NCBI GenBank assembly: GCA_016193045.1
Contig: JACPSW010000059.1
Span: 49,383 to 113,382 of the forward strand
DNA: 64,000 nucleotides
Reading direction: 5' to 3'
From: Candidatus Rokuibacteriota bacterium
GTDB taxonomy: Bacteria; Methylomirabilota; Methylomirabilia; Rokubacteriales; CSP1-6
Numbering within the stretch: the stretch's first letter is position 1; each line of letters opens with the position of its first letter. The notes under the pieces were generated by a model that saw nothing but the letters and a program-made list of their open reading frames with translations, was not told the origin of the DNA and did not search any database. Of this stretch, positions 29,090 to 63,774 are shown one piece after another. A program made the translations under genes and the position numbers.

Positions 29090-29099
29090 TCTCCTGCTC

Positions 29100-29525
29100 C
29101 TAGAAGGTGTTTACCGCCCTCATCGCACAGAGACGAGCCTCGGTCGCTGACAGGACCCAGCCTCTAACGTTGACTACGCGGCCATGCAGGAAATCGTCAC
29201 GTTGCTGCTGGTGCACCAAGTCGCGGAGTTTTTCTATGTCAGTGTCCAGGAGCTCGGCACCACGGCCTGGCCACGTTGAACAAATCACACCAAGCAGCAA
29301 CTGCACGTTCGCCTCGCTGGGGACCTGCTTAAGGTATTCTCGTCCAACGATCGCGGCGCTTTCTTTACAGGCCAACACACCAGCGAGTTTCGAAGCGCCC
29401 GGATCGTGGACTCTGCTCCTACGCACGGCACCCCACGTGCCTAGTGGGCGGCAGAGACCAAGGGCCCCCACCCAAAGCATGAAAGTCAGGAAACGTCGTC
29501 TGAGGATGCTTGTAGACGGGCTCAT
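29100..29525 (-). CDS. Gluconate 2-dehydrogenase subunit-3-family small TAT-exported subunit, the partner of the GMC oxidoreductase.
   Basis: Carries the RRRFLTF twin-arginine signal at the N-terminus and is the small subunit typically encoded beside GMC flavoproteins. It overlaps the upstream GMC gene by 4 nt. Confidence 0.6.
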   Translation of the reverse strand: MSPSTSILRRRFLTFMLWVGALGLCRPLGTWGAVRRSRVHDPGASKLAGVLACKESAAIVGREYLKQVPSEANVQLLLGVICSTWPGRGAELLDTDIEKLRDLVHQQQRDDFLHGRVVNVRGWVLSATEARLCAMRAVNTF

Positions 29526-39661: not shown

Positions 39662-39683
39662 CGGCTTCTCCCTCGGGCCGTCC

Positions 39684-42039: not shown

Positions 42040-42047
42040 CCGTTCTC

Positions 42048-42650
42048 TCACGTTGGGACGACTTCGGAGACAGTGAGGCCCTTCTTCCGATAGCTGCGAC
42101 GGCAGGCGGCGCAACTCGTCGTCTCGTCCCCATCGTTCGCGATCCCCAGTCCGAGCTTGACACCGCAGGAGCACATCCACCCCCGCAACCGGGCCGGGTT
42201 GCCGTAGACCATCGCGTAGTCCGGAACATCCCGCGTGACGACCGCCCCGGCACCGACGAAGGAATAGCGCCCCAGCGTGGCGCCGCAGATCAGCGTCGCA
42301 TTGGCGCCGATCGTGGCGCCCCGCCGGACGAGCGTGGGCTGGTATTCGTTCTTCCGAGGCACGTGGCTGCGCGGGTTTTCCACGTTGGTGAACACCGACG
42401 ACGGCCCGCAGAACACGTCGTCCTCGAGGATGACTCTCTCGTACACCGAGACATTGTTCTGGATCTTGACGTTGTTACCGATGACGCAGCCCGACCCCAC
42501 GAACACGTTCTGACCGAGGCTGCAGTGTTCGCCGATGACTGCGCCCGTCATGATGTGGCAGAAATGCCAGATCTTCGTGCCCTTCCCGACCGAACAGGGC
42601 TCATCGATGAGCGCCGAGTCGTGGGCAAAATAGCCGCTGCCTTCCTTCAT
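42048..42650 (-). CDS. Hexapeptide-repeat N-acyltransferase, WbpD/WlbB-like, with an unusual C-terminal Cys cluster.
   Basis: Start at [17 protein letters not shown]. Left-handed beta-helix repeats are present. The C-terminal tail (WMCSCG...CAACRR) adds four Cys residues not typical of WbpD. Confidence 0.7.
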   Translation of the reverse strand: MKEGSGYFAHDSALIDEPCSVGKGTKIWHFCHIMTGAVIGEHCSLGQNVFVGSGCVIGNNVKIQNNVSVYERVILEDDVFCGPSSVFTNVENPRSHVPRKNEYQPTLVRRGATIGANATLICGATLGRYSFVGAGAVVTRDVPDYAMVYGNPARLRGWMCSCGVKLGLGIANDGDETTSCAACRRSYRKKGLTVSEVVPT

Positions 42651-47668: not shown

Positions 47669-49726
47669 TCACGAGAGCTCCATGGCCCAGCGGAGCAGCG
47701 GCTCGATCGCGGGCGAGACACCGCCTCGGACAGGCATCAGGACGAAGCGGATTTCGATCGGGACCACGCCCCGCCTCTCGTAGGTGACGACCGGGGCCCT
47801 CTCGATCACCCCGTACCGAGGGGAGAGCCAGCCGTCGCTCACCGCCACGGACAGCTCCGGATCCTGGTTCCAGACCACCATCAACCGCCGGTCGCGGTCT
47901 CCGACGTGGATCACCCACGGATCCATCGAGGCGACGGCGACCTCCAGAGGGGCCAGGTGCAGGAACCCCCGGACGGTGTGCGTCCCCTTGCCCGTGAGGA
48001 GGTCACGAACAGTCCAGACACCCAGCCGTTTGTCGAACCAGATCTGGCGGCGGTGGACGACGGGCTCGGGCAGACGGGTATAACCGTTGTGCTCCCCGTC
48101 GAAGCGGTCGAGGTCGTCGTGGACCTCCCAGCCGCGCAGGGTGAAGAGCACGGTTTCGTCCCGCTCGACCGGGAAGAGGTTCGGGTCGTCGAGGAGCCGC
48201 GTCTGCTCGTATCCGTCGACCATGACCGTGTTGTGCGACGCCGTGCTCCGGAACCGGTTCCTCCACTCGGGGGAGACGGTGTAGGCGTACGTCCCGGGAT
48301 CCTGCACGTACGCCGTCCCAGCGGCCCAGCACTCGAACGAGAGGAGGTCATGGTGCAGGTGGCCAGCCGGCCCCGTGCTCGGGCCACTCACCACCAGGTG
48401 GCGCCCCTCGCCCCGCATCACGAAGAACCCACCGTGGGGAAAGGCCCGGGAGGGCACGGTCTCGGGCTTCTCCGGAATGGCGTCATAGGTTCGGAGCCCG
48501 GTCAGCCCGAGCCACCAGAGGTTCGCCGCCCCGAGGGCCCCGCTTGCCGCCTTGAAATCAGATCGGCCGAAGAGCGCGGCGCCGGCGGCCAGCAAGGCCC
48601 GGTGACTCCGCGGGTCTCGGCTGCCCAGGTCAATCAGACTGCCGTCATCGCAGTCCCCGATGGCGGGGAAGGTCCCGTCCGGGCGGGTATAGGCGAGGGT
48701 GAACTCCAGCATGCGCTCGACGCGCTCGAGAGCCGCCGGCGGCGGCTCCAGGCCGTTTCGCCGGCAGAGGCTCAGGGCCACGAGCAAGCAATGGAGGACG
48801 TCACCGTGATATCCGATGGCATGCTCGTAATCGACCCCGTCGGCCGTTACCTGGCGGGTGACCTCGCCCCACACGATGCGCCAGCCTCGCCCGAGCCACC
48901 GGCGGGAGTCCCGGACCTCGCGCAGTACCACCCCCAGCGCGAGGAGCCCGAGCCCGTCGGTTATAAAGTGGTTCCCGGGAAGCGGGCAGATCTCCAGGTT
49001 CTGGAGGATGAACCGGGCGTGATCAGCCAGGGCGGCCAGGAAACGCCGCTGGCGCCCCTCGTCGAAGACCGGCGCCTCCAGAAACAGGAAGAACGCCCAC
49101 AGCCAGTTGACGGCGCGAACGGCGGCCTCCATGGCGCATGTCCAGTTCACGCCGAATCCGGCAGGGTTGGCAGCCATCCAGCTCTCCCACTGGGCCACGA
49201 ACTCGGCAGCGTACCGTTCGCTCCCCGTGAGCCAGTAGGCCTGGCCGAGAGTCACCCACTGATGGCAGCGGGAGAGCTCCCAGACCACCCTGACGTCAGA
49301 GGGGCGGCCGGGGTCCAGGTAGTCGATCGCCGTGTGATGGCGAAGCTCCCACCGCAAGCCTGAGATCGGGTCCCGGTGCCAGTCGATCGGGTGGGCCAGC
49401 TCGACGGGTCCTCGACCCAGCAGCGGAACCCGATGGCCGCACACCTCGTCCGCGGCGCGTACCGTGGCCGCCACCGCCTCGGGCTCGTGGGCCTGCAGCG
49501 CCTCGACCAGGGCCCACCGGTCCGCCGGATGCACGAAGAAGCGGGAGGCGGCGCTCGCCCGGAGGTCTCGATGCACCTCCACAGTGACGCCGTTCGTCCG
49601 CCACGCCGACGCGCTATCGGTCATCAGCCGATGGGTCAACGCCCGGCCCCGCTGCGTGAGCTTCTGGGCTAGGATCGGAAGCGGCATCTTCAGCGCCCTC
49701 GCCACGTTCGTGCCACGCGTCCTCAT
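47669..49726 (-). CDS. Heparinase II/III-like protein (alpha/alpha-toroid plus beta-sandwich); a candidate polymer-level uronate epimerase or lyase.
   Basis: Start at MRTRGTN (49726). Large conserved blocks (WELSRCHQW, AEFVAQWESWMAANP...NWTCAMEAAVRAVNW, HGHADLLSF-like HHDLLSFE) are typical of the Hepar_II_III family. There is no signal peptide. Confidence 0.7.
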   Translation of the reverse strand: MRTRGTNVARALKMPLPILAQKLTQRGRALTHRLMTDSASAWRTNGVTVEVHRDLRASAASRFFVHPADRWALVEALQAHEPEAVAATVRAADEVCGHRVPLLGRGPVELAHPIDWHRDPISGLRWELRHHTAIDYLDPGRPSDVRVVWELSRCHQWVTLGQAYWLTGSERYAAEFVAQWESWMAANPAGFGVNWTCAMEAAVRAVNWLWAFFLFLEAPVFDEGRQRRFLAALADHARFILQNLEICPLPGNHFITDGLGLLALGVVLREVRDSRRWLGRGWRIVWGEVTRQVTADGVDYEHAIGYHGDVLHCLLVALSLCRRNGLEPPPAALERVERMLEFTLAYTRPDGTFPAIGDCDDGSLIDLGSRDPRSHRALLAAGAALFGRSDFKAASGALGAANLWWLGLTGLRTYDAIPEKPETVPSRAFPHGGFFVMRGEGRHLVVSGPSTGPAGHLHHDLLSFECWAAGTAYVQDPGTYAYTVSPEWRNRFRSTASHNTVMVDGYEQTRLLDDPNLFPVERDETVLFTLRGWEVHDDLDRFDGEHNGYTRLPEPVVHRRQIWFDKRLGVWTVRDLLTGKGTHTVRGFLHLAPLEVAVASMDPWVIHVGDRDRRLMVVWNQDPELSVAVSDGWLSPRYGVIERAPVVTYERRGVVPIEIRFVLMPVRGGVSPAIEPLLRWAMELS

Positions 49727-49733
49727 CGGCTGG

Positions 49734-50855
49734 CTAGCCTCTCGCGAAGCCGGCGGCGGCCACTCCGCTCTCGCTCCGGAGTGGGCCGATCCCGACGCGC
49801 TCGTAGACGTCGAGCAGCCGATCCTGGGCGCCCGCGTCTTCGCATCGCGAGCGCCAGTCGCCGGTGAGCCGCAGGTGCAAGGCCCGGGCGACCTTCTCGG
49901 CGAGATCTTGTACGTCCCCTCGGCGACAGAGGAGGACGCCGGCCGGCCGGAAGTCCGTATCGGTGGCGACGACGGGGACGCCCAGCGCCAAGGCCTCCCG
50001 CACCGAGGAGGCGTCGCCATCGATGTAGCTCGGCCGGACATAGACGTCGGCTCGTGCCAGGAGGGCCAGGCATCGCTCGTGGGCGACCTCTCCTAGGCAG
50101 AGGACGCGATCCTCGAGCCCGCGCTCGGCTATGAGGCGGCGCAGCGCGGCGTCGCCCCCGGAGCCGATCACGATGCATCCCAAGCGGGGGAAGTGCGCGC
50201 TGAGACGGGCGACCGCGTCCACCACGATCGGAAGGCCGTACCACTCCGGCTCACGTCCGCCTATCGTGGCCACCAGCGGCGTGAAGGCGCTCAGCATGCG
50301 CTGGTCCGCCTCCGTCAGCGGGGCAGTCGCGCGGATCCCCAGGTAAGCGGGGATGACGGACAGCCGGTCCGTCTGGACGCCGAGGCCCGCGACCGCCTCG
50401 CGGATCTTGGCGTTGACGCAGATGACGTGGGCGAACGACGCGATGCCGAGGCGCACCAGGGAGCGGCTGGCGGGGTTGAGACTCAGCAGGTACCCCGGGG
50501 CCAGGCCAGAGTGAAGCGTGAGCAGGCCCGTCGCCCCACGCATCCGGAGGACCATGGCCGCCACCACGACCATCAAGCAGCTCTTCCGGTTGTCGCAGTT
50601 GGTGTGGAGGTGGAGTAGCGCCCCGGGCACGAGGCTTTCGCATAGCGCGGTGAGGAAGTCGACACGCCGGGCGATGGCACGGTACTCCGCGCTCGGCGGC
50701 GCGCCCCGACGGAGGTTGAGGATCTTGACGGGCACGCCGTGCGTCCGGAGCCGCTGGGCCAGCTCGCTGATGTGCAGACCTTCCCCGCCCATGGGCGGGG
50801 GGTAGTAACCAGCCAACACCACGGGCCTCAGGCCGACGCCTACGGTCGCCCGCAT
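49734..50855 (-). CDS. Glycosyltransferase family 4 (GT-B fold).
   Basis: Pattern includes the C-terminal EALALGVPVVATD (the E-x7-E region). Confidence 0.75.
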   Translation of the reverse strand: MRATVGVGLRPVVLAGYYPPPMGGEGLHISELAQRLRTHGVPVKILNLRRGAPPSAEYRAIARRVDFLTALCESLVPGALLHLHTNCDNRKSCLMVVVAAMVLRMRGATGLLTLHSGLAPGYLLSLNPASRSLVRLGIASFAHVICVNAKIREAVAGLGVQTDRLSVIPAYLGIRATAPLTEADQRMLSAFTPLVATIGGREPEWYGLPIVVDAVARLSAHFPRLGCIVIGSGGDAALRRLIAERGLEDRVLCLGEVAHERCLALLARADVYVRPSYIDGDASSVREALALGVPVVATDTDFRPAGVLLCRRGDVQDLAEKVARALHLRLTGDWRSRCEDAGAQDRLLDVYERVGIGPLRSESGVAAAGFARG

Positions 50856-52029: not shown

Positions 52030-53337
52030 TCACCGCGTCGGGGAGACCAACACCGCCAGCCGAGCGCCGATCACCCGGATGGCCGCCGCGAGGCCGGCCA
52101 GGTAAAAGAGCAGGAAGCCGTAGGAAATGGGCAGGAAGGAGGCGCCGACCAGAAAGCTGTAGATCGCCAGTTCCAGGCCGCTGGCTATGGCGATGACCTC
52201 GCGCGCCTCCGGGACCGGCCTGAGCCGCCTCTGCGTCTGTCGGAGCCCTCGCAGGCTCTGAACGAACAGCAGGACGTAGACGAGCAGTCCCGGAAGGCCG
52301 AGGTCGGCCCCCACCCGCAGAAATACGCTGTGGGTCACGTGTTCCCCCTTGAACCCCTTCTCGACGTACACAAGGCCCTCCATCCCCAGGCCTGCGCCGA
52401 TCAACGGATTCTCCAGCATGGACCTGAAGGCGACCTGCATCTGTTGCGAGCGGCTCTGGATGGAGCCGGCGCGGTCGCGGTCCCAATCGAAGAGGCTGTA
52501 CAGCCGGTCGGCGTAGCCGTCCGGAGCCAGGAAGATGCCCACGACGACAAGCGCCGATGCCCACAGCAGCGCCACGGGCCCCCGTGCCCGGACCCATCTT
52601 GCCAGCAGCACCGCAACAATCAGCGTCAAGCCGAGGAACCCACCGCGGGAAAAGCTGACGATGACCCCTGCCACCGCCAGACCCATCCCCGCCAGGAGCA
52701 GCACCTTCACGAGGCGCCGCCGCGCCACGAAATAGAGCCCGATCGTGAGCGCGAGGATCACGTTGAGGGTGAGGGCGAGATCGACGGCGTTGTCGGCCAA
52801 CTGGTTGGCGTAGCCCCAGATGCGGCCAGGCTCACGGGACATCGTGTGCTCGGTGGCGAAGTTGCGCAGCGCCGTCGCCGAGATGATGAAGCCGTAGAGG
52901 ACGATGGACGCGACGAGCAGCTTGAGGCGTCGCATCGTCTCCAGTAGATTGGCGATCAGAAAGAAGACGATGACGCTCTTCACGAAAGTGCTGAGGAAGA
53001 ACTCGAGGCTGCCGCCGGGCGAGAGCGAGAACGGGATCGACACCACGGCCGCGAGCGCGAACCACAAGACCAGGCGAACCTCGGGCGTGACGACCGTCAC
53101 GGGCCGCCGGTTCATGAGACGGCTCAGGACATAGGCGACCGCGGCCAGGCCTGCCGACGTCGCCGCGAGACGGAGCGGCTCCAGGCTCGGGAAGATGTTT
53201 TGTGGCGCGATGAACAGGACGAACGTGAAGAACATGAGGCACCAGAACGGGACGACGTTCTCCCGGGGTGGGGCCGCCGACGTCCGGGACGCGCCGGAGC
53301 GGGCCCGCGCCTCGCTCACGATCCCGGCGGCCGTCAC
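52030..53337 (-). CDS. O-antigen/EPS polymerase or ligase-family membrane protein (Wzy_C domain).
   Basis: About 10 transmembrane helices, with the characteristic periplasmic loop FSRGGFLGL. Confidence 0.65.
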   Translation of the reverse strand: MTAAGIVSEARARSGASRTSAAPPRENVVPFWCLMFFTFVLFIAPQNIFPSLEPLRLAATSAGLAAVAYVLSRLMNRRPVTVVTPEVRLVLWFALAAVVSIPFSLSPGGSLEFFLSTFVKSVIVFFLIANLLETMRRLKLLVASIVLYGFIISATALRNFATEHTMSREPGRIWGYANQLADNAVDLALTLNVILALTIGLYFVARRRLVKVLLLAGMGLAVAGVIVSFSRGGFLGLTLIVAVLLARWVRARGPVALLWASALVVVGIFLAPDGYADRLYSLFDWDRDRAGSIQSRSQQMQVAFRSMLENPLIGAGLGMEGLVYVEKGFKGEHVTHSVFLRVGADLGLPGLLVYVLLFVQSLRGLRQTQRRLRPVPEAREVIAIASGLELAIYSFLVGASFLPISYGFLLFYLAGLAAAIRVIGARLAVLVSPTR

Positions 53338-53380
53338 CGCGTCACCTCGCCGAGCACGGCCATGAGGTCGCTCACCGCGG

Positions 53381-54910
53381 TCACCCCTCTAGAGCTTCCC
53401 GGGCGGGGAGACCACCCAGCGCGCGGAGCCTTCGGCCCAGGGCCTGGATGGCTTTCTTTTCGCCGCTGCTGAGCACCGCAAACCGCCACAGCATCACGAC
53501 GTAGATCGCCCCGAAGGCCACACCGGCGGCGGCGAGGATCAGCCAGGAGGCCAGGAGTCCCGTTGTCTTCACCAGCAGCACCGGAATCGCCGACACGAGA
53601 GAGGCCGCGACGATCCGGGCCAGCACGCCGAGCGGCCATACCTTCGCGTACGGCAGGCCGGTGAGGCGGCTGACGCGGACGAGCAGGATCACGTGGGTGG
53701 CCGCGAGCGCCAGGACGAAGGCGAGCGGCGCGCCCGGGAGGCCGAGCGTCGGGGGAAGCACGGTCAGGAGCCCCACACACACCATGCCGCGGACCGCGTA
53801 CATGAAGAACAAGAAGCGCGTGTCGGCCCACGCCCGGGGCACGTAGTCGAGCTGGGTCGCCATGAGGGGAAGCACCAGCAGGGACACCCGGAAGACCGGC
53901 ACGGCGTCCACGAAACGGTGCGTGTACAGGAGCGTGATCACCTCGCCGGCGAGGAGCTCGAGCAAGACGAACAGGGGCAGGCAAACCAGCGCCACCAGCC
54001 GGATGCCGGCGCCGATCGTGTCGTGGATCTGGTCGCGGGCGCCGACCTGCGCCAGCCGGGTGACCTGCACAACGACCATACTGACGACAGCGCTGTAGAT
54101 CACATCGACGAACGGGACACTCATGGAGCCCACCGCGAACACGGCGAACGTCCGGGTGTCATACCCCCAGGCGACGTAGTACTGCGGCGCCGCCAAGGCG
54201 AGGACCTCCACGATGTGGCCGCCCCAAAAAGGGATCGCGTAGTTCCACTGGCGCCCCACGGGCCCCCAGGACAGCGCCCGGAAGGACAGGAGGCGGGCCC
54301 GACGGAGATAGAGGAGGAGCGCGGTGATCCGTGCGGCGTGGACCACGGTCACGGCCCACAGAATGGCGGGCACGCCTCCCCCGGCCAGGAGCACTCCCAG
54401 GACGAGGGCGGCGAGAGCGAGATCTGAGACGCCGTAGGCCACCGCCGCCTGGCGGGCGCGCTGCCGCGCGATGAGGATGGCTTCCAGCACGGAGCTGACG
54501 AGCGTCGCGCCCAGAAACACCGCCAGTTGAGGCGCCAGGGGACCCAGGAGATTCTCGTAAAAGGCTGCCCCCCACCACGGCGCCCCAGCAACGAGCGCCG
54601 CCCCGCCGACGACGGCCACGAGCGCCAGCACGGCCAGGCTCTGGGAGACGTACTGGGGTCTGGCCCGCTCGTCGCGCTGGAGGAAGTAGTACAGGCTGGC
54701 GGGCAGGCCGAGATCCAGCAGCAGAATGAACGTGGTCTGCAGCAGGAAGGCCTGCTTGTACAGTCCGAACTCGATCTGGGGCAACTGCCGGGCCAGGACC
54801 ACGGCCATGGCGAACCGGCAGACGAACCCCGCCCCCCGTCCCACCACCAGCGCGGCGGTGCCTCGCCCGAAGCTCGAGTCCACGGCTGGCCGCGAGGGGG
54901 CCTTAAGCAC
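53381..54910 (-). CDS. Wzx-type oligosaccharide flippase (MOP superfamily polysaccharide biosynthesis protein).
   Basis: 509 aa with 12-14 transmembrane helices. The composition and length are typical of Wzx/RfbX flippases. Confidence 0.75.
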   Translation of the reverse strand: MLKAPSRPAVDSSFGRGTAALVVGRGAGFVCRFAMAVVLARQLPQIEFGLYKQAFLLQTTFILLLDLGLPASLYYFLQRDERARPQYVSQSLAVLALVAVVGGAALVAGAPWWGAAFYENLLGPLAPQLAVFLGATLVSSVLEAILIARQRARQAAVAYGVSDLALAALVLGVLLAGGGVPAILWAVTVVHAARITALLLYLRRARLLSFRALSWGPVGRQWNYAIPFWGGHIVEVLALAAPQYYVAWGYDTRTFAVFAVGSMSVPFVDVIYSAVVSMVVVQVTRLAQVGARDQIHDTIGAGIRLVALVCLPLFVLLELLAGEVITLLYTHRFVDAVPVFRVSLLVLPLMATQLDYVPRAWADTRFLFFMYAVRGMVCVGLLTVLPPTLGLPGAPLAFVLALAATHVILLVRVSRLTGLPYAKVWPLGVLARIVAASLVSAIPVLLVKTTGLLASWLILAAAGVAFGAIYVVMLWRFAVLSSGEKKAIQALGRRLRALGGLPAREALEG

Positions 54911-55904
54911 GGGACGTTCCTCCGAAGGTCTCCACCAGGATCTTCACGATCCGGCTCGCCGCCTGCCCGTCCCACAGCGGCGGAGGATCGTTCGGACAGG
55001 GCGGGTGCTCCAGAGTCCACAATGCTTCCGCCACGATGCGCGCCGGATCGGCGCCGATTACCCTATTCGTCCCGTGGCTGACGGTGACCGGACGCTCGGT
55101 GGTGTCCCGGAGGGTCAGGCAAGGCACGCCAAGGACCGTCGTCTCCTCCTGGACCCCTCCAGAATCGGTGAGGACGAGACGGGCACGGCTCATGAGGGCG
55201 ATGAAGTCGAGGTATCCCAGGGGATCGAGATAGGTGATGCCCTTTCTGGACAGAGGTCCACTGGAATCCGGCATCCCCTTGAACAGGTAACTTTGGCGGA
55301 GGAGCTGGTGCTTCACGCGCGGGTGGACGGGAAAGACAATGGGCACCTGGCGAGCCAGCTCCTCGAGCGCTTCCAGGTAGTTCATCAGGGTCAGGGGGTC
55401 GTCCACGTTGGAAGGGCGGTGGAGGGTCAAGACCGCGTACGACTCACCGTCCAGCCCCAGCCGGCTCAGGATCGCCGACCGTTCCCATCTCGACCGGAAC
55501 GTCTGCAGGGCGTCGATCATGAGGTTGCCGACGAAATGGACCTTCTCCGGCGTGATGCCCTCCCGGAGCAGGTTCTGCCGGCCGCTCTCTTCCGTGACGA
55601 ACAGCAGGTCGGCCACGGCGTCCGTCAGCACCCGGTTGATTTCCTCGGGCATGGTCCGGTCGAAGGAGCGGAGACCGGCCTCGACGTGGGCGACCGGGAT
55701 GCGAAGCTTCACCGCCGTGAGGGCGGCGGCCAGTGTTGAGTTCACATCCCCCACGACCAGCACGAGGCCCGGGCGCGTCGATTCAAGAAGAGGCTCCAGC
55801 CGCCGCATCACCTCGGCGGTCTGAACCGCGTGGGAGCCCGAGCCCACGCCGAGGTTGAAGTCCGGCGGACGGATGTCCAGCTCGGTGAAGAACTGCGCCG
55901 ACAT
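54903..55904 (-). pseudogene. Second UDP-GlcNAc 2-epimerase (wecB) copy, missing the N-terminal ~40 codons (Rossmann beta1-alpha1).
   Basis: The first ATG of the ORF (MSAQFFTELD) aligns to about residue 53 of the intact copy. Homology continues upstream in the same frame (LLVHTGQHYDGPM) to about 55,940 and then stops abruptly inside the 3' end of the beta-helix gene. No in-frame start codon was identified in the homologous upstream stretch. Confidence 0.5.
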
Positions 55905-57633
55905 CGGACCGTCGTAGTGCTGGCCGGTGTGGACGAGCAGCGGGGTCAGAGCGGACGCCTGGGATGCGCAGTCCCCGGTCCACGGCCGGACTGCCCGCCC
56001 GCAGCGTGAAGACCCGCTTGGCCTCGTCGGTGAACAGCGGGTCGATCTCGAGGTTGTCGGTGGCCTCGCGGTGAGTCTCCTGGAACTGCGCCAGGGTGTA
56101 TGTCAGGTTCTCGCCCTGGCTCGTGTTGCGGATCCGCAGCACCGCCGACTTGCCCGCCGATCCGGGCTCGCCCAGGAGGATGTTGTTCACAATCCGATTG
56201 CCATTCAGGCTCCCCACGGGCCAGGCCGTCGGGTTGTGGTAATGCTCGATCCCGATCGTGTAAGGCCCGCTGTTCCGGAAGAAAATATTGTTGGCGATCA
56301 GGTTGTCGCGCACGCTGCGGCCGTCCTTTTCAGACATCCAGATCGCGTATGACCCGTTGCCGTAGAAGACGTTGTGGTAGATCTGGTTGCCGATCGCGTC
56401 TTGGGGGAGGGCCTCACCTTTCTCCGTGTAGACATACCCGAGCAGCAAGAATGAGGTCGCGTTGTTGAAGACCTCGTTGTAGCGGATGATGTGGTCGCGC
56501 GACATAATCTGGATCGCCGTGGCAGTAAAGTTCACATTGGCCCGCTTCGCATCGGAGATGCGGTTGCGCTCGACGAGCGTTCGTCGGGCCATCCCGCCCA
56601 GCCCCATCCCCGTCCCCCACGGATTCGACAGGCTGTTCCCCGCCACCACGTTGTCTGCCACCTCGGCCTGGCCGGCCCTGTCACCGCCGACCTGGATCAG
56701 GGCGTGACCGGCGTTGCGCAGGGTGTTCTTCAGGACGCGGTTGCGGCTCGATCCGTTGTCGATCCAGATGCTGTCTCCCTTGTCGCCATTCAGATCACCG
56801 ACGTCGATGATCTGGTTCCGCTCGATGAGATTGTCGCTGGACCTGGTGATTCGAATAGCGTGGCCATAGGCGCCGGGTGCCGTGCCGGTATCCGCGATAT
56901 AGGAGTCGCGCACGACGTTGTGATGCGCGCCGGCGTCGAGCATGACGGCATTACCGGGGACGTTCTGGATCCGGAGCCGCTCCACCACGATGTGGCCGCG
57001 AGCCTCGAGCCTCACCGCGACGCCGGAGCGGCCGCCGGCGAGCACGGCGGTCTGGTTGGGATAGCTCTTGAAGGTGATCGGCTTCGCGGGAGTTCCCGAG
57101 ACCGCGGGACGAATCTGCTGGGCCGTGAAAGTCCCACGCAAGAGCACCGTATCACCCGCGACGACGGAGCGGTTGGCCTTCTCCAGGGTCCGCCACGCCG
57201 TCTCCGGGCTAGCCCCGTCCTTGCCGTCGTCGCCGCTGGCGGCATCGACGTAGAGGACCCGGTTGAAGGTCGGCGGGTTCACGACGGTCAGCCGGAGGGG
57301 GGCGGACACGATCACGGCCCCCGAACGGTAGTGGGCCTCCGCTGTGACCGTATACTCTCCAGGGGTCGCGCTGGCGGCGCTCCAGACCACCTCGTACGGA
57401 CGCGTGGTGTCCGGCGCGTCCAGGACGTAGCCATCCAGCTTGAACTGGACGGCGAGCAACCCCGGGTCCGGCGGCACCTCGGCGGTGAGCATCACGGCTC
57501 CGCTCACCGGGGATGGTTGAGAGGACCGGAGTGAGACGGGCAAGGACTGCGCGTGGCTGGAAACCGGGCCGCACACCAGCAGCAGGGCCACGAGGAGCGG
57601 GAGACCCCTTGCCAAGCTTCGGTGGTCGTTCAC
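55783..57633 (-). CDS. Secreted right-handed beta-helix protein with an N-terminal Ig-like domain (paralog 2). Its C-terminal tail is replaced by read-through into wecB-derived sequence.
   Basis: GTG start and signal peptide (LARGLPLLVALLLVCGPVSSHA). Motifs match paralogs 1 and 3 up to ...GLRIPGV. The last 56 aa (RSDPAARPHRP...) are unrelated and are encoded by an alternative frame of the truncated wecB. Confidence 0.75.
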   Translation of the reverse strand: MNDHRSLARGLPLLVALLLVCGPVSSHAQSLPVSLRSSQPSPVSGAVMLTAEVPPDPGLLAVQFKLDGYVLDAPDTTRPYEVVWSAASATPGEYTVTAEAHYRSGAVIVSAPLRLTVVNPPTFNRVLYVDAASGDDGKDGASPETAWRTLEKANRSVVAGDTVLLRGTFTAQQIRPAVSGTPAKPITFKSYPNQTAVLAGGRSGVAVRLEARGHIVVERLRIQNVPGNAVMLDAGAHHNVVRDSYIADTGTAPGAYGHAIRITRSSDNLIERNQIIDVGDLNGDKGDSIWIDNGSSRNRVLKNTLRNAGHALIQVGGDRAGQAEVADNVVAGNSLSNPWGTGMGLGGMARRTLVERNRISDAKRANVNFTATAIQIMSRDHIIRYNEVFNNATSFLLLGYVYTEKGEALPQDAIGNQIYHNVFYGNGSYAIWMSEKDGRSVRDNLIANNIFFRNSGPYTIGIEHYHNPTAWPVGSLNGNRIVNNILLGEPGSAGKSAVLRIRNTSQGENLTYTLAQFQETHREATDNLEIDPLFTDEAKRVFTLRAGSPAVDRGLRIPGVRSDPAARPHRPALRRSDVGAVLHRAGHPSAGLQPRRGLGLPRGSDRRGDAAAGASS

Positions 57634-57645
57634 CAGTAATCGCGC

Positions 57646-60018
57646 CTACGACGTGACCCGCGTGTCCATGGCCTCTTGCACCTCCGCCTGGGTCAGCGCG
57701 CGGTTGTAGACCCGAACCTCGTCGATCAGCCCGCCGAAGAAGTCGAGGTTCGACGCGCCGTAGATCCAAGCCCCGATCTGGAGCGCATCAGTGACTGCGG
57801 GCAGCGATACCGATCGGGCGGTCCCCTGCGGTGCCCCGTTCAGGTAGGCGCGCAGGGTCGCGCCATCGTAGACAAGCGCTACGTGATGCCAGGTGTTCGT
57901 CGAGATGGCCGTGCCGAAGGTGCGGCCGCCGGAGAAGGTGATCACGCCGTTCCTGAGGAAAAAGGCTCGCGTACTCCCGACCGTCATGATCGTCTCGTAC
58001 GCCTCGTTGCTCGGGTTGAAGACCCAGGCCATCATGGTGAAGGCCGGACCGAGCGTCACTGTGCCCGCAGCGACGCGATCGTGGACGCCGTCGAAGGCAA
58101 GTGCCCTCCCCAAACCCCCCGGCGTGTGCGTCGTCCTGGTGGCGCCCGAGATGGTGGCACTGCGGTTGTTTCCCGAGGAGTCGACGGCGGTGGCGCCACT
58201 CCCTTCGTCGAACCCGTAGGCGGCCACGAGGCCGCCGGCCGCGGCGACCTCGAAGATGCCGATATCCGGGGCGGCCCCCTGGAAGTGGACGCCGGGGATG
58301 ATCACGCCCTCATCGATGGCAGAGCTCCCCGCCTGGAGGGCGAACACCCGGTTCGCCTCGTCGGCGAAGCGCGGGTCGGTCTCGAGGTTGTTGGCCGCCT
58401 CTGGGTAAAGGGCCTCGAATTGAGCCAGGGTGTAATCGACGTTGCCCCCCTGGTCGGGGCGGCGAATGCGCAGCACGGCGAGCTCCCCGGCGGAGCCGGG
58501 CTCCCGGAGGAGGATGTTGTTCTGGATCCGATTCCCGTTCAGGCTGCCTTCCGGCCACGCCACCGGCGTCTGGAAATGCTCGATGACGACCGAATAGATG
58601 GCGCCCCCGAAGGCAAAACCGCTGTTTCGGAAGAAGACGTTGTTCGCGATGAGGTTGTCGCGAACCGTGCGGCCGTCCTGTTCGAACAACAGGATCGCGA
58701 CCCCGGCCTGTCCCGCGTTGGCGGGCGCGGCCGTCCCCCCGTTGCCGTAGAAGACGTTGTGGTAAATCTGGTTGCCGATCGAGTCCTGCCCGATGGGTCC
58801 GAAGGCGAAGCCGCCCACGTGGATGCCCGCGCCCGCGTTGTCGAAGACCTCGTTGTACCTGATGATGTTGTCGCCGGCCGCGATCTGAATCCCCGGCCCG
58901 GGGGGGTTGACGCCGTTGCGGGCCCCGTCGGAAATCCGGTTGCCCTCGACGAGCGTCCGCCGGGCTCGCCACGAGAGGATAAGGGGCGTCGCCCACCGGT
59001 TGGACAGCACGTTGTTGGCCACGACGTTGTCGAGGACATCGGCGTCATCCGGCCGGTCGCCGCCGATCTGGATCAGGCTGTGGCCGCCGTTCGTCAAACG
59101 GTTGTTGAGGATCAGGTTCCGGCTGGCGCCGTTCGCGATCCAGACCGAGTCGCCGATGTTGGCCGCCTCGTCGCCCACATCCCGGATGATGTTGGCGTCG
59201 ATGACGTTGTCGCTGGAGCCGTCGTAGATGAGGATGTCGGTGCCCGTGAGGTCAGAGTTCCTGACCACGTTGTGGTGCGCGCCCTCGGCCAAGAAGACGC
59301 CGGACACTCCGATCGGGCTGCCGATGTTCGTCATGGCGAGGCCGTCGACGATGATGTAGCTCTCGGCCGAGCCCCTGTCGAGCCACACGACAGCGGCGAA
59401 CCATCCGCCGTCGAGCACGGCGGTCGCCCCCGGCGCGCTGCGGAAGGTGATCGGCCGGTCGGCCGTCCCCGACGTGAGGGGCCGGATCACCTGGCCCACG
59501 AATGTGCCCCGCAGCAAGACCGTGTCGCCTGCTACGACCGACTGGTTGGCCCTGTCGAGCGTCCGCCAGGCCGTGCTCGGGCCCAGTCCGTCGTTCGCGT
59601 CGTCGCCGCTGGCAGCATCCACGTAGAGCGTTCGGTTGAAGGCCAGGGGGTTGGCCACGGTGAGGTGGAACGGGGCGGATTCGATCACTTCGCCCGAGGC
59701 GTAGCGGGCTTCAGCGGTGATCGTGTGCTCGCCGTTCACGGCGCTGGCCGCGCTCCACAGGATCTCGTAGGGAAAGGCGGTATCGAGCGCTTCCAGCGGG
59801 TAGCCGTCGAGTTTGAACTGCACGCCGAGGAGCCCAGCCTCGGGCGGGACGTCGGCGGAGAGCGTCACGACGCCGGTCACCGGCGACGACTGGGACGCGC
59901 AGATCGCGAACCCCGGGAGCGCGGCCGGTTGGGCGGCCACGGGCAGGGGCAGGGCGGCCCAGGCCGCGAGCAGCAGGAGCGCCCGGCAGGCCCGAGCGAG
60001 GATCGAGTGTGCGTTCAC
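57646..60018 (-). CDS. Secreted right-handed beta-helix protein with an N-terminal Ig-like domain and a C-terminal LamG/concanavalin-A-like lectin domain (paralog 3).
   Basis: Signal peptide ILARACRALLLLAAWAALPLPVAA. The beta-helix core is paralogous to 12054..13883. A C-terminal ~200 aa LamG-like domain is present (FDGVHDRVA...WHHVALVYDG...LRAYLNG...IDEVRVYNRALT). Confidence 0.8.
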   Translation of the reverse strand: MNAHSILARACRALLLLAAWAALPLPVAAQPAALPGFAICASQSSPVTGVVTLSADVPPEAGLLGVQFKLDGYPLEALDTAFPYEILWSAASAVNGEHTITAEARYASGEVIESAPFHLTVANPLAFNRTLYVDAASGDDANDGLGPSTAWRTLDRANQSVVAGDTVLLRGTFVGQVIRPLTSGTADRPITFRSAPGATAVLDGGWFAAVVWLDRGSAESYIIVDGLAMTNIGSPIGVSGVFLAEGAHHNVVRNSDLTGTDILIYDGSSDNVIDANIIRDVGDEAANIGDSVWIANGASRNLILNNRLTNGGHSLIQIGGDRPDDADVLDNVVANNVLSNRWATPLILSWRARRTLVEGNRISDGARNGVNPPGPGIQIAAGDNIIRYNEVFDNAGAGIHVGGFAFGPIGQDSIGNQIYHNVFYGNGGTAAPANAGQAGVAILLFEQDGRTVRDNLIANNVFFRNSGFAFGGAIYSVVIEHFQTPVAWPEGSLNGNRIQNNILLREPGSAGELAVLRIRRPDQGGNVDYTLAQFEALYPEAANNLETDPRFADEANRVFALQAGSSAIDEGVIIPGVHFQGAAPDIGIFEVAAAGGLVAAYGFDEGSGATAVDSSGNNRSATISGATRTTHTPGGLGRALAFDGVHDRVAAGTVTLGPAFTMMAWVFNPSNEAYETIMTVGSTRAFFLRNGVITFSGGRTFGTAISTNTWHHVALVYDGATLRAYLNGAPQGTARSVSLPAVTDALQIGAWIYGASNLDFFGGLIDEVRVYNRALTQAEVQEAMDTRVTS

Positions 60019-60023
60019 GTGCG

Positions 60024-61334
60024 CTACAGCCTGAGAATCCGGTCGGCCGGAGCGGGGATCCCCCAGGTGGCGTTCCGCGTGTCCACGACGAGCGCCGCCG
60101 CCTCGACGATCCGCCGGTAGTCGAACTCCGGATGGTCGGCGAGGATCAGCGCGCAGTCGGTCGCTCGGAGCTCCTCGTCCGTCACCGCCACGGCCTTCAG
60201 CACAGCCCCGTCAAGCACGATCGAGGGGACGTAAGGGTCGGCGTAAGAGACCTCGGCCCCCCTGTCGCGGAGCTTCGCGACGATCTCCAGGGCAGGCGAC
60301 TCCCGCATATCGCCGACGCCGCGCTTGTACGCGACCCCGAGCGCGAGGATCCTAGCGGCGTTCACACAGCGGGCCCGCCGGTTCAGCGCCTCGGTCACCA
60401 GCTCCACCACGTGGCGGGGCATCGCGCGATTGATCTCGTCGGCCAGCGCGATGAAGCGCGCCTCGTAGCCGTTGAGGCGCATCTTCCAGGCGAGATAGAG
60501 GGGGTCGACGGGGATGCAGTGCCCGCCGATGCCCGGCCCCGGGTAGAAGGGCATGAAGCCGAAGGGCTTCGTGGCGGCGGCGTCGATCACCTCCCTGGTG
60601 CTCACGCCGAGGCGCTGGCACATGAGGGCGAACTCGTTCGCCAGCGCGATGTTGACGTTCCGGAAAACGTTTTCGTAGAGCTTGGCCAGCTCGGCGACCT
60701 TCGGGCTGGAGACCTCGACGACCTTGGTGATGATCTGACGGTAGAGGAAGGCGGCGAGGTGTGCGCACTCGGGCGTGACGCCCCCCACCACCTTCGGGAT
60801 GTCTCGCACCTTGAAGGTCGCGTTGCCCGGGTCGATGCGTTCCGGCGAGAAGGCGAGGAACAGGTTGACGCCCACCCTGGCCTGCCGGCCCTCGAACAGG
60901 GAGAGTAGGAGCTCCTCGGTGGTCCCCGGATAGGTCGTGGATTCCAGAATCACCAGCTGACCGGGCCTGAAGCGGGCGGCGGCCTGCTCTGCCGCGGCGA
61001 CCACGAAGGAGATGTCCGGGTCCTTGGATTTCCTCAGCGGCGTCGGCACACAGATGAGCACGGCTTCGCTCTGTTCCAGGACGGAGAAGTCCGACGTCGC
61101 CTCGTACCGGCCTTGGCGGAGCAGTGTCGCCAGGTCCTCGCTCTCCACGTCGGGGCTGCACGACCGGCCGGCGTTGAGCGCCGTGACTCGGTCCAGGTCG
61201 GTGTCGAGGCCCGTCACCGGAAAGCCGGCGCGGGCGAACTCGACGGCCAGAGGGAGCCCCACGTACCCCTGGCCGATGACGGTGAGGCGTGCCTCCCGGT
61301 TTCGGATGCGTTCGACGAGGCCTGCGTGACTCAT
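60024..61334 (-). CDS. UDP-N-acetyl-D-glucosamine (or mannosamine) 6-dehydrogenase, WbpA/WecC-like.
   Basis: The Rossmann motif TVIGQGYVGLPLA and a catalytic Cys region (GGHCIPVD) are present. 436 aa, in the nucleotide-sugar dehydrogenase family. Confidence 0.85.
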   Translation of the reverse strand: MSHAGLVERIRNREARLTVIGQGYVGLPLAVEFARAGFPVTGLDTDLDRVTALNAGRSCSPDVESEDLATLLRQGRYEATSDFSVLEQSEAVLICVPTPLRKSKDPDISFVVAAAEQAAARFRPGQLVILESTTYPGTTEELLLSLFEGRQARVGVNLFLAFSPERIDPGNATFKVRDIPKVVGGVTPECAHLAAFLYRQIITKVVEVSSPKVAELAKLYENVFRNVNIALANEFALMCQRLGVSTREVIDAAATKPFGFMPFYPGPGIGGHCIPVDPLYLAWKMRLNGYEARFIALADEINRAMPRHVVELVTEALNRRARCVNAARILALGVAYKRGVGDMRESPALEIVAKLRDRGAEVSYADPYVPSIVLDGAVLKAVAVTDEELRATDCALILADHPEFDYRRIVEAAALVVDTRNATWGIPAPADRILRL

Positions 61335-62368
61335 TCCCGCACCTCCGCGGCCAGCTCCAGGACGGCCTGGGCCAGTCTCTGTGGGTCGTGGCGGATCTTG
61401 GGGCCCACCCCGAGAAGGTCGCGCGCGATCGGCCGGACGCCCAGCGCCCCTAGGGGCGGGACTTCCATGGGGACGGGGACAGTACCTTCGGCGGCATAAT
61501 GCTCGATCAGCTCAGGGGGGATGGGGGCAGTATTAAAGAGCACATCGTGAATGGGGACCTGGGGCGCATGGCCACGGATGGCCATGACAAAGTCGGCCGC
61601 GGTGTAGCCGTCGGTCTCCCCCGGCTCGGTCATCAGGTTCATCACGAGCACGATCCGGGCACGGGAATGCGCCACGGCCTCCGCGAGCTCCTCGATCAGG
61701 AGGATAGGGATGAGGCTGGTGTAAAGACTTCCGGGGCCGATGACGATCAGATCCGCCGCCCCGATGGCGTCCCGGGCCTGGGGGAGGGCCCGGGCGCCTT
61801 CCGGCTTCAGCCGAACCCGCCGGATGGGGCGGCGGGCCGAGGCGATCCGTGATTCTCCTTCCACGCAGCTGCCGTCGGCAAACTCAGCCAGGAGGACGAC
61901 ATCGTCCCCGGTGGATGGCAAGACTCGCCCCCGGATCGCCAGGATCTCGCCTCCCCGCTCCACCGCCCTGGAGAAGTCGCTCTCGAGCTGGCTGAGGGCG
62001 GTCAGGATGAGGTTCCCCAGGCTATGGCCTCCAATTTCTTCTCCGCCATTGAATCGGAAGCTGAAGATGGCCGCCATTCGGGGATCGCCATCCGCGAGGG
62101 CGAGAAGGCAGTTCCGGAGGTCGCCCGGAGGGAGCACCCGGTACGCCTGTCTCAGGCGCCCGGAACTGCCTCCGTCGTCCGCGACCGTGACGATGGCCGT
62201 GAGTCGATCCCGGTCTCGGGACGGTTCCCACATCCATCCGGGAGGAAACAAGGCCGCTCTCATGCCCTGGAGCAGAATGGGGAGACCGGTGCCGCCCCCC
62301 AGCGCGACCACCCTGGGAGTTCGACGGGCGGGCCGGAAGGCCGGGGCCAGGAGCCGCTCCCCCGGCAT
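61331..62368 (-). CDS. YvcK/CofD-family (UPF0052) protein.
   Basis: Start at MPGERLL. The VVALGGGTGL motif and conserved DGGSSG and GPGSLYTS blocks are present. Confidence 0.75.
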   Translation of the reverse strand: MPGERLLAPAFRPARRTPRVVALGGGTGLPILLQGMRAALFPPGWMWEPSRDRDRLTAIVTVADDGGSSGRLRQAYRVLPPGDLRNCLLALADGDPRMAAIFSFRFNGGEEIGGHSLGNLILTALSQLESDFSRAVERGGEILAIRGRVLPSTGDDVVLLAEFADGSCVEGESRIASARRPIRRVRLKPEGARALPQARDAIGAADLIVIGPGSLYTSLIPILLIEELAEAVAHSRARIVLVMNLMTEPGETDGYTAADFVMAIRGHAPQVPIHDVLFNTAPIPPELIEHYAAEGTVPVPMEVPPLGALGVRPIARDLLGVGPKIRHDPQRLAQAVLELAAEVRE

Positions 62369-62478
62369 GGCCTGCCACCGGTAGAGCCCTATGTGGCTGT
62401 CGTACTCGACCAGGTAGCGTGGCTCGCCCACGGCCTCACTCCGTCTTGATGCCCCGCACTTCCTCGCTCTTCCACCAA

Positions 62479-63774
62479 TCACGCCGCCTTCGTCTGGTCG
62501 AGCTTCTTGCGTAGTGTCCATTTGCCGGTCACTCCCGTGAGGGGCTCGGCCCGGCGGGCATCGGGCGCCGCTGAACGGCAAGCTAAGAGAACGATCTTGA
62601 ATGTCTCGAAGAGGATACGGAGATCGAGCCGGAACGACCGGTGCTTGACGTAGTAGACGTCGTACCGCAGCTTCTCGATCTCTTCCTCGAGGTTGTTCGC
62701 GTAGCGGTAGCGGACCTGGGCCCAGCCCGTGATTCCTGGCCGGACCATCGAGCGGAGGCAGTAGTACGGGATGGCTTCGCCGCTCTCGGGGGTGTTTCGA
62801 GCTACCAGGGCAAACAGCTCGAAGTTTGAGGCCGGATGGGGCCGCGGACCTACGAGATTCATGTCGCCCCGGACGATGTTCACCAACTGAGGAAGCTCAT
62901 CGAGGTGAAACTTCCGGAGCCACTTCCCGACCCGGGTGATGCGGTCGCCGTTGTCCCCGACCCACTCGGACGTCCGCCCGCTGGCGGGGCGCATGGTGCG
63001 AAACTTGACTAACGTGAAACGCTTCCCGCGCAGGCCCACCCGCTCCTGAACGAAAAACACGGGCCCCCGGGAATCCAGCTTGATCGCCAGGGCGATGAAG
63101 CCGAAAAGGAGGGCAAGGCTGATGAGCCCCATCAGAGAGGCGAGAAAGCTCATGGCGCGCACGAGCACCAGGTAGGTCCAGGGCTTGGGGAAATCCCTGG
63201 AGAAGACGAGGTGGTTCGACGTGAGCGACTCGATGGCGAGCTTCCCCGTGAGGCGCTCGTAGACCTCGACACCGTCGTCGACAGCAACGCCCCTCAACAT
63301 CCGGGCCTCCAGGAGCGGCTCGATACGCAACCTCCCTCGCAGCTCGTCGAGCGCCACGATGATCCGGTCAGGACGGACCTGCTCAACAATCTTGCCGATC
63401 TGCTCCAGTGGCCCCAACAGGGGATAGCCGAGCGGTAGGTCTTGGGGCCCGCCGGGATCATCCGCCACGCCCACGATGGCGTACCGGCCACGGGGGTCAG
63501 CCTCGATCTCCTCGATGAGCTTCCGGGTGAGCAGGCTCGTCCCCACGATCAGCACGCGCTCCCTGAAGGCGCGGCTTCTGAGAATCCGGTATGTGGCGGC
63601 GTGGAGCGGCAGAACCAGCCCGAGGCCGATCAGGACACTCGCGAGGACAGGACCTCGGGCGAGCATTTCTGGGAAAAGCACGTAAAGGGCGCCCACCACG
63701 GGTAAGGCGATGCCGAGGGATACCGCGCAGGCGAACGACAGTGCGGAGGCTAGCTTCAGCCGCGTCAGCGTCAT
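62479..63774 (-). CDS. Polyprenyl-phosphate glycosyl-1-phosphate transferase (WbaP/EpsB-type bacterial sugar transferase); initiates repeat-unit assembly.
   Basis: N-terminal transmembrane helices and a CoA-binding-like linker are present. A C-terminal catalytic domain has KFRTM, DELPQLVNIVRGDMNLVGPRP and ITGWAQV motifs. Confidence 0.85.
   Translation of the reverse strand: MTLTRLKLASALSFACAVSLGIALPVVGALYVLFPEMLARGPVLASVLIGLGLVLPLHAATYRILRSRAFRERVLIVGTSLLTRKLIEEIEADPRGRYAIVGVADDPGGPQDLPLGYPLLGPLEQIGKIVEQVRPDRIIVALDELRGRLRIEPLLEARMLRGVAVDDGVEVYERLTGKLAIESLTSNHLVFSRDFPKPWTYLVLVRAMSFLASLMGLISLALLFGFIALAIKLDSRGPVFFVQERVGLRGKRFTLVKFRTMRPASGRTSEWVGDNGDRITRVGKWLRKFHLDELPQLVNIVRGDMNLVGPRPHPASNFELFALVARNTPESGEAIPYYCLRSMVRPGITGWAQVRYRYANNLEEEIEKLRYDVYYVKHRSFRLDLRILFETFKIVLLACRSAAPDARRAEPLTGVTGKWTLRKKLDQTKAA

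Follow-up and report, generated by a model that had tools for sequence, protein, structure and literature searches.

A 126-bp gap across a beta-helix/wecB gene boundary in a conserved polysaccharide operon of Candidatus Rokubacteria, probably a deletion allele

The window, i.e., the whole 64,000-nucleotide stretch of DNA analysed here, carries on its minus strand a nucleotide-sugar dehydrogenase gene followed by two tandem beta-helix genes, a 5'-truncated wecB-type gene, and a Wzx-type flippase gene that overlaps the wecB stop by 8 nt (Table 1). An earlier, sequence-only reading had described the truncated beta-helix and wecB genes as converging, but both lie on the minus strand, in tandem and co-directional. 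For the dehydrogenase, the best equivalog-level matches are UDP-ManNAc dehydrogenases, all under the curated cut-offs, and its designation therefore stays "WecC or WbpA".

Table 1. Features of the window that bear on the beta-helix/wecB junction.
Feature	Position	Strand	Basis or remark
Wzx-type flippase gene	53381..54910	-	own GGAGG upstream
5'-truncated wecB-type UDP-GlcNAc 2-epimerase remnant	54903..55953	-	profile search, comparison with intact allele P0121
Out-of-frame tail of beta-helix ORF, 56 codons + stop	55783..55953	-	+1 frame of wecB remnant
Deletion junction (probable)	55953..55955	-	blastn of L168 vs window, pairwise alignment A5
Native part of beta-helix protein, 560 codons	55954..57633	-	identical to intact allele in L168
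Upstream tandem beta-helix paralog, 790 aa	57646..60018	-	58% identical to truncated copy
Nucleotide-sugar dehydrogenase (wbpA in the sequence-only reading)	60024..61334	-	profile search
Third beta-helix paralog, 648 aa	11937..13883	+	native ...IPGIAYLGAAPDLGAYEY... C-terminal region
UDP-GlcNAc 3-dehydrogenase-like (WbpB-like) gene beside second epimerase	38645..39700		profile search
Intact second 2-epimerase, 388 aa	39684..40850	-	47% identical to truncated copy
DegT aminotransferase (WbpE-like) gene beside second epimerase	40834..42180		profile search

The truncated beta-helix gene encodes a protein of a secreted type, in which domain search identified Big_7 and right-handed beta-helix (Pel9A-like / PF13229) domains, both still present in the window copy. 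Its 616-aa ORF (55783..57633, minus strand) matches its relatives and both paralogs as far as ...GLRIPGV, past which all five relatives and paralogs have the motif x-Y-x-G-x-A-P-D-I-G-x-F-E. The window copy lacks this motif, and its native C-terminus (VYHGSAPDIGAFEVDR, then stop) is replaced by an Arg/Pro/Gly-rich tail unrelated to the family, which bears out the abrupt end of similarity and the 56 out-of-frame codons reported previously. Two true paralogs of the gene are present in the window, of which the upstream tandem one carries a C-terminal Laminin_G_3 domain and occupies the same position in the relatives; ORF 47669..50041 was rejected as a paralog, being a heparinase II/III protein with 25% identity. 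With one ORF running over the sequence of two genes, the arrangement resembles an in-frame fusion or chimeric protein, but no epimerase domain is fused here. An in-frame beta-helix/wecB fusion was rejected because the two parental frames lie +1 apart; the tail consists of unrelated codons that end at 55783.

The wecB frame (ATG 55904 to stop 54903, minus strand) continues upstream through ...SALTPLLVHTGQHYDGPM, and farther upstream in this frame neither epimerase similarity nor a canonical start was found. Against TIGR00236 (wecB; cut-off 210.15) and PF02350, the remnant reaches 315.9 and 358 bits, respectively, and it covers positions 33-363 of the 366 in TIGR00236, positions 1-32 being absent, compared with 1-364 for the ortholog P0002. 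Its counterpart in the intact 376-aa allele P0121, which is carried by the near-identical contig L168, is codons 27/28-376, with 347/347 residues identical. Compared with WecB/MnaA non-hydrolysing UDP-GlcNAc 2-epimerases (TIGR00236, PF02350; 1F6D, 4NEQ), the remnant keeps the catalytic Asp/Glu/His, the allosteric GQHYD, and the conserved Arg, but has no start codon or Shine-Dalgarno sequence and is missing beta1 and the GARPNFVK motif (GxRPxxxK; Arg10, Asn12, and Lys15, E. coli numbering), all present in the L168 allele; the N-terminal Rossmann-like domain (beta1 plus GxRPxxxK loop/alpha1) is thus incomplete. Among the catalytic-site residues listed for the T. thermophilus enzyme (PMC10622841), Asp98, Glu120, Glu132, His208, Ser284, Glu290, Arg302, and Glu306 are kept, in invariant columns of alignment A6. 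The deleted segment aligns with Arg12, Gln14, and Lys17 (the latter being E. coli Lys15), which contact the pyrophosphoryl/uracil and pyranosyl groups (PMC10622841).

For both epimerase copies of the window, the best PDB match is the WbpI/WlbD-type UDP-2,3-diacetamido-2,3-dideoxy-glucuronic acid 2-epimerase (T. thermophilus 8SXV; 309 and 370 bits). The deleted copy, however, has Arg and Val at the Trp307 and Tyr96 positions and is therefore not of the WbpI subtype. This Arg (...TTERP... in the window copy, P0121, P0003, and P0006; alignment A6) is conserved in UDP-GlcNAc-acting enzymes, where it forms a hydrogen bond to the C-3' hydroxyl of UDP-GlcNAc (PMC10622841). The second epimerase carries Trp307 (...EETEWVE...) and Tyr96 (...TYGDT...; T. 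thermophilus numbering, alignment A6), which are signature residues of UDP-GlcNAc3NAcA 2-epimerases (PMC10622841). Its WbpB- and WbpE-like neighbours also agree with the WbpI type, and it scores 370 bits to 8SXY vs 288 to 4NEQ in a PDB sequence search; at position 18 (FIKIAP) it has Ile, not the Ala of that type. Going by the signature residues, its substrate is probably not that of the truncated wecB. The proposal that this intact copy makes the loss tolerable is therefore doubtful, all the more at 47% identity. In a metagenome scan with the second epimerase, the best match was 65% identical, and among the matches listed none lay on syntenic contigs.

In four related loci (L001, L002, L003, and L085), the dehydrogenase and the tandem beta-helix genes are followed by a full-length wecB (374-386 aa) with 81-85% protein identity to the window copy. 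The same gene order is found in L168, a Logan contig assembled from the public run SRR12113385, in which the intact allele assembles cleanly, with both the beta-helix gene (576 aa, counted from the same GTG start) and wecB intact. Comparison with L168 (blastn and pairwise alignment A5) showed that the window lacks 126 bp (L168 positions 2426-2551), while identity on the two sides of the gap is 100% (2425/2425 nt) and 99.97% (3613/3614 nt); the gap is a deterministic alignment result, and chance similarity is excluded. On the minus strand, the junction reads ...ATCCCAGGCGT-C-CGCTCTGACC..., where the single C at 55954 can be assigned to either flank, i.e., a 1-bp microhomology. The missing 126 bp take in the final 16 codons of the beta-helix gene with their stop, the ATGA in which wecB starts, and wecB codons 1-26 (MRIVNIVGARPNFVKVAPLIRAMAGH); codon 27 is altered at the junction. 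In the intact allele, the beta-helix stop overlaps the wecB start at this ATGA, and a GAGG Shine-Dalgarno sequence lies shortly before it. The +1 offset is the same before and after the deletion: the two genes did not share a frame beforehand, and the loss of 126 bp, a multiple of three, left this unchanged.

These comparisons uphold the sequence-only reading in its placement of the end of wecB similarity near 55,940-55,955, its view that the junction could be resolved to a few bp, and the removal of the wecB 5' end together with the beta-helix 3' end. Its estimate that about 40 N-terminal codons were missing was right about the loss of the nucleotide-binding beta1-alpha1 segment and too high in number, since the reference was the 47%-identical paralog, whose N-terminus carries insertions. 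A GTDB genome scan with the remnant, whose matches did not include the source MAG, gave a best match of only 74% identity (Rokuibacteriota AR22), and at this distance the ancestral state of the junction could not be rebuilt.

The junction had been attributed to an insertion of the tandem beta-helix genes between the dehydrogenase gene and wecB, deleting the wecB 5' and beta-helix 3' ends. In the window alone, paralogous beta-helix genes indeed separate wecB and a UDP-sugar dehydrogenase gene, which are often adjacent, and one end is ragged. However, the same order with intact genes is present in the four related loci, so that the beta-helix genes are ancestral and not inserted, and it is present in L168 as well, from which the window differs over 6.1 kb only by the 126-bp gap and one SNP. 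Synteny has thus already refuted the insertion, to which practically no credence is given.

A shortened epimerase, translated from CTG 55949 or ATG 55904, may on sequence grounds still be made and retain some function, e.g., regulatory/allosteric UDP-GlcNAc binding or a role as a subunit with the paralog. The ORF is open for 347 codons, all C-terminal-domain and allosteric-site residues are conserved, and GenBank lists a normal CDS (MBI3029559.1, 348 aa from CTG 55949; the longest ATG ORF gives 333 aa). Neither candidate start, however, is preceded by a GGAGG-like Shine-Dalgarno sequence, in contrast to the starts of the intact allele and of the flippase gene downstream, and ribosomes translating the beta-helix ORF cross both starts in another frame. 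No start restores the N-terminus, as had been noted before, and a product of either start would lack the central beta1 strand together with two conserved active-site residues. The segment is present in all 118 other full-length homologs within the best 120, leaving no naturally short homolog; P0107 (342 aa), considered as a second short epimerase, was rejected as a miscalled start only, because the complete LRIVNVVGARPNFVK... N-terminus can be read in frame on its contig. Residual function is thus considered very unlikely.

Apart from the missing segment, the remnant is free of decay. Its dN/dS vs orthologs is 0.17-0.23, equal to the values among intact orthologs, and it shows 0 deviations at columns at least 97% conserved across 120 homologs. 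The event is therefore either very recent or artefactual, and the zero decay agrees equally well with an artefact and with a very recent event. In an artefact of assembly, scaffolding, or consensus building, the organism would have the intact allele only, and the 126 bp would have been dropped while the 144-kb MAG contig was built. This is the less probable alternative, though a substantial one: both flanks agree almost perfectly with an intact contig from an independent assembly, and the truncated form is carried by just one contig in the collections searched, where exact look-ups of P0001 and of the window flippase and dehydrogenase gave no record and no further contigs with either allele. 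MAG pipelines that pair a contig assembler with a separate scaffolder also exist, e.g., MEGAHIT with IDBA-UD scaffolding (PMC7906910).

Several observations speak against such an artefact. No direct repeat of at least 8 nt was found at the breakpoints, which share only the 1-bp microhomology, so that the assembly collapse of a repeat offers no ready explanation; repeat-mediated deletion or misassembly was rejected on the same ground. De Bruijn graph contigs traverse only k-mers found in the reads, and scaffold gaps are normally N-filled; the window sequence has no N at the junction. Moreover, the sole SNP (54666, in the flippase; R82 in the window, Q in L168) is linked to the deletion at about 1.3 kb from the junction and marks the two assemblies as distinct haplotypes. 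A weak inverted repeat (15 nt, 80%) lies near the deletion ends.

Taken together, the junction reflects either a very recent knockout variant of an ordinary kind or a mistake in assembly. It is probably a plain 126-bp deletion allele that a Candidatus Rokubacteria population carries in a conserved exopolysaccharide/O-antigen-type operon, and not the scar of an insertion. Such a deletion would have arisen by illegitimate, microhomology-level recombination or replication error and would span the gene boundary, removing the beta-helix 3' end and the wecB Shine-Dalgarno sequence, start, and codons 1-26. It would be very recent and exist as a real strain-level variant alongside the intact allele. 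As a consequence, the beta-helix ORF has lost its conserved APDIGAFE C-terminal motif for codons in the +1 frame of wecB. The wecB gene has lost beta1 and the GARPNFVK loop/alpha1, with their UDP-sugar-contacting Arg and Lys, as well as its canonical start and ribosome-binding site, and is predicted from its sequence to be a null allele; the supply of UDP-ManNAc for the polysaccharide of the locus would therefore be lost or altered.

Surface-polysaccharide loci vary within populations. The finding is ordinary and shares its pattern with small-deletion pseudogenes and strain-level structural variants in such loci: a short stretch is lost where two genes meet, with 1-bp microhomology, leaving a truncated gene and a read-through tail that is frameshifted. 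Nothing is distinctive here, and only the exact intact allele being at hand is unusual. It is improbable, though conceivable, that the knockout allele segregates in a natural Rokubacteria population and is maintained by escape from phages or predators, because a ManNAc(A)-containing surface polysaccharide is lost or altered and an associated beta-helix glycan-modifying enzyme no longer has its native C-terminus; if so, this glycan locus would offer a momentary view of negative frequency-dependent selection in an uncultivated phylum.

The main value of the finding lies in annotation quality. Two entries deserve to be flagged as disrupted: MBI3029559.1, recorded in GenBank as an ordinary non-hydrolysing UDP-GlcNAc 2-epimerase that starts at a CTG, and the beta-helix ORF with its spurious 56-aa tail. 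In metabolic reconstructions of this MAG, the truncated copy should not be counted as a working wecB, nor should the second epimerase be taken to replace it, given signature residues that suggest another substrate. Should the deletion prove real, it would provide a small strain-level example of loss of function in a Rokubacteria surface-polysaccharide operon, useful but unsurprising.

The junction between the beta-helix gene and the truncated wecB-type gene is present in the sequence and was mapped to the base as a deletion of 126 bp within a conserved operon; the insertion or recombination scar joining unrelated segments that the sequence-only reading had proposed was not borne out. On the minus strand, the beta-helix ORF (Big_7 and Beta_helix domains) overlaps the wecB-frame ORF, and both genes run in the same direction, although they had been stated to converge. 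Translated upstream of its first ATG, the wecB frame reads ...CASQASALTPLLVHTGQHYDGPMSAQFF..., preceded by unrelated sequence up to a stop without any in-frame ATG, GTG or TTG, in agreement with the earlier view that the remnant lacks a plausible start. Pfam Epimerase_2 and NCBIfam TIGR00236 match the remnant strongly, the latter over 33-363 of its 366 profile positions vs 1-364 in the ortholog P0002. BLASTP against the second, intact epimerase of the window begins at LLVHTGQHYD, i.e., residue 41 of that copy (47% identity). A protein-collection search with the remnant retrieved its GenBank protein, P0001 (MBI3029559.1; 348 aa, from the 144-kb contig of a Candidatus Rokubacteria MAG), which is annotated as a normal non-hydrolysing UDP-GlcNAc 2-epimerase with CTG as Met, not as a disrupted gene.

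The 90% cluster of this protein has a single further member, P0121 (376 aa), which is encoded by a 6165-bp contig, L168, of the Logan assembly of SRR12113385, and which is identical to the remnant at 347/347 comparable residues. Exactly one segment of L168 is absent from the window, with a single C at the junction being ambiguous. In L168, the beta-helix gene ends in ...IPGVVYHGSAPDIGAFEVDR, its TGA overlaps the wecB ATG (ATGA), a GAGG lies 8 nt upstream of the wecB start, and wecB begins with MRIVNIVGARPNFVKVAPLIRAMAGHPALTPLLVHTG. The deletion removes 16 codons and the stop of the beta-helix gene, and the Shine-Dalgarno sequence (SD), start and codons 1-26 of wecB, with codon 27 being changed; the N-terminus is thus gone as first described, but the count is 26 codons, not roughly 40. 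The two reading frames differed by +1 before the deletion, and the loss of 126 bp, a multiple of 3, keeps this offset, so that read-through is out of frame; an in-frame fusion of the two genes was ruled out on that ground. The C-terminal alignment, which contained the window beta-helix ORF, its two window paralogs and three orthologs, confirmed that similarity is lost right after GLRIPGV: following IPG[VI], both paralogs and all three orthologs read x-Y-x-G-x-A-P-D-I-G-x-F-E, and the window ORF continues into 56 unrelated, Arg/Pro/Gly-rich codons.

Coordinates of the features discussed (strand in brackets where reported)
Feature	Window	Other contig	Property
Matching block, beta-helix side	58378..55954	L168 1-2425	100% identity
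Matching block, wecB side	55954..52341	L168 2552-6165	99.97% identity, one mismatch (54666)
Segment absent from window		L168 2426-2551	126 bp
wecB-frame ORF	stop 54903, first ATG 55904 (minus)
MBI3029559.1	54903..55949 (minus)
Truncated beta-helix ORF	55783..57633 (minus)		616 aa
Upstream beta-helix gene	57646..60018		58% identical to truncated ORF; additional Laminin_G_3
Third beta-helix paralog	11937..13883 (plus)		~75% nucleotide-identical over 1 kb to truncated gene
Second epimerase	39684..40850 (minus)
Gfo/Idh/MocA gene	38645..39700		UDP-GlcNAc 3-dehydrogenase-like
DegT aminotransferase	40834..42180
Dehydrogenase	60024..61334
CofD/YvcK-family gene	61331..62581 (minus)	L001 1536-2510; L003 1411-2391
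Beta-propeller gene		L003 8520-10004	494 aa, PD40/Tricorn-like
Heparinase II/III-like ORF	47669..50041 (minus)		790 aa
ORF overlapping heparinase-like ORF	49734..50855		373 aa
Low-GC region	26576..31000		GC 0.54-0.58 vs ~0.67 elsewhere
ORF in low-GC region	26576..29089		837 aa, no Pfam match

The closest solved relatives of the intact allele are the Thermus thermophilus UDP-GlcNAc3NAcA 2-epimerase (8SXV family, 309 bits), the Methanocaldococcus jannaschii UDP-GlcNAc 2-epimerase (4NEQ, 285 bits) and Escherichia coli WecB (1F6D, 186 bits). According to PMC10622841, the substrate contacts of the T. thermophilus enzyme include Arg12 at the pyrophosphoryl and uracil groups, and Gln14 and Lys17 at the pyranosyl group. 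The conserved catalytic-site residues include Arg12 as well as Lys17, whose E. coli counterpart, Lys15, was among five residues chosen for mutagenesis (PMC10622841). Arg12, Gln14 and Lys17 align with Arg10, Asn12 and Lys15 of P0121 (alignment A6), all inside the deleted 26 codons; the N-terminal seven-stranded sheet also loses its strand beta1, and all other catalytic and allosteric residues are kept (alignment A6). No GGAGG-like SD precedes the candidate starts CTG 55949 and ATG 55904, both of which are crossed in another frame by ribosomes on the beta-helix ORF; the downstream flippase start has a GGAGG at 8-nt spacing. From these sequence features, we infer that the truncated wecB would be a null allele.

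A naturally short epimerase was not found among the best 120 homologs. The remaining close matches to the remnant (81-85% identity and below) are 370-400 aa long and begin with M[KR]I[VL]N[IV]VGARPNFVK, and in the alignment of the best 120 homologs only P0001 and P0107 start late. P0107 was rejected as such an enzyme because the complete N-terminus is present in frame on its contig, which makes its late start a start-calling error. The gene order in relatives is CofD-like, sugar transferase, nucleotide-sugar dehydrogenase, beta-helix (with LamG), beta-helix, wecB, (flippase), Wzy, glycosyltransferases and heparinase-like, as seen in loci L001 and L002, with L003 being a variant and L085 a partial view. 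Because ortholog contigs share this order, the tandem beta-helix pair that separates the dehydrogenase from wecB is ancestral, and its proposed insertion between wbpA and wecB is rejected. DNA alignments with the relatives' loci show a clean 162-237 bp gap in the window at the junction.

Several further features of these loci were recorded. The second beta-helix gene and wecB are spaced by -4, 7 or 82 bp, or by one whole added gene (the beta-propeller gene of L003), which indicates that this boundary is variable among relatives. In all syntenic relatives, the CofD/YvcK-family gene adjoins the priming sugar transferase at the operon head, an unusual yet conserved association. The heparinase II/III-like ORF, ruled out as a beta-helix paralog, is 690-691 aa in the relatives' called genes, and the N-terminus of the mechanical ORF is probably over-extended. 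The secreted Pel9A-like family has three copies within one 64-kb window, the third lying ~42 kb off on the opposite strand. The ORF in the low-GC region may have been horizontally acquired.

The remnant carries no sign of decay: pairwise Nei-Gojobori dN/dS against five orthologs is 0.16-0.23, indistinguishable from 0.14-0.23 among intact orthologs, and it has no substitution at columns at least 97% conserved across 120 homologs (mean per sequence, 0.96). Considered alongside the near-identity to L168, the lack of decay implies a deletion that is either extremely recent or not biological. No direct repeats of at least 8 nt were found flanking the breakpoints, so an assembler had no repeat to collapse there, and the event resembles an illegitimate recombination or an error of replication, which would have used 1-bp microhomology. 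Over 6 kb, the sole SNP vs L168 (54666) places Arg in the window and Gln in L168 at flippase residue 82, and this linked difference sets the two assemblies apart as different haplotypes. Assembler graph contigs follow k-mers that occur in reads, whereas scaffolders fill gaps with N, and there is no N at the deletion junction in the window. On these grounds a real strain variant is the favoured and reasonably likely explanation, and an artefact appears rather unlikely.

The loss had been considered tolerable owing to an intact wecB elsewhere in the window, a view that the second epimerase does not support. In UDP-GlcNAc-acting enzymes, the WbpI-type positions Trp307, Tyr96 and Ala18 are occupied by a conserved Arg, by His or Gln, and by Leu or Met, respectively (PMC10622841). 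At positions 307, 96 and 18 (T. thermophilus numbering, alignment A6), the deleted copy and its orthologs have Arg, Val and Val, and the paralog has Trp, Tyr and Ile. Given these residues, its score of 370 bits to 8SXY vs 288 to 4NEQ, and its WbpB-like (Gfo/Idh/MocA) and WbpE-like (DegT) neighbours, the paralog probably functions as a UDP-GlcNAc3NAcA 2-epimerase rather than as a redundant WecB. No orthologs of it above 65% identity were found among the matches listed in the metagenome scan. The dehydrogenase scores best with UDP-ManNAc dehydrogenase models but below all their cut-offs, so its designation as wbpA is not established. The event type is ordinary, namely, either a strain variant with a recent loss of function or an assembly error, and the 126-bp deletion has consequences for annotation and little wider significance. 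The Trp/Tyr signature of the paralog and its WbpB-/WbpE-like flanks suggest a ManNAc3NAcA-type pathway at this Rokubacteria locus.
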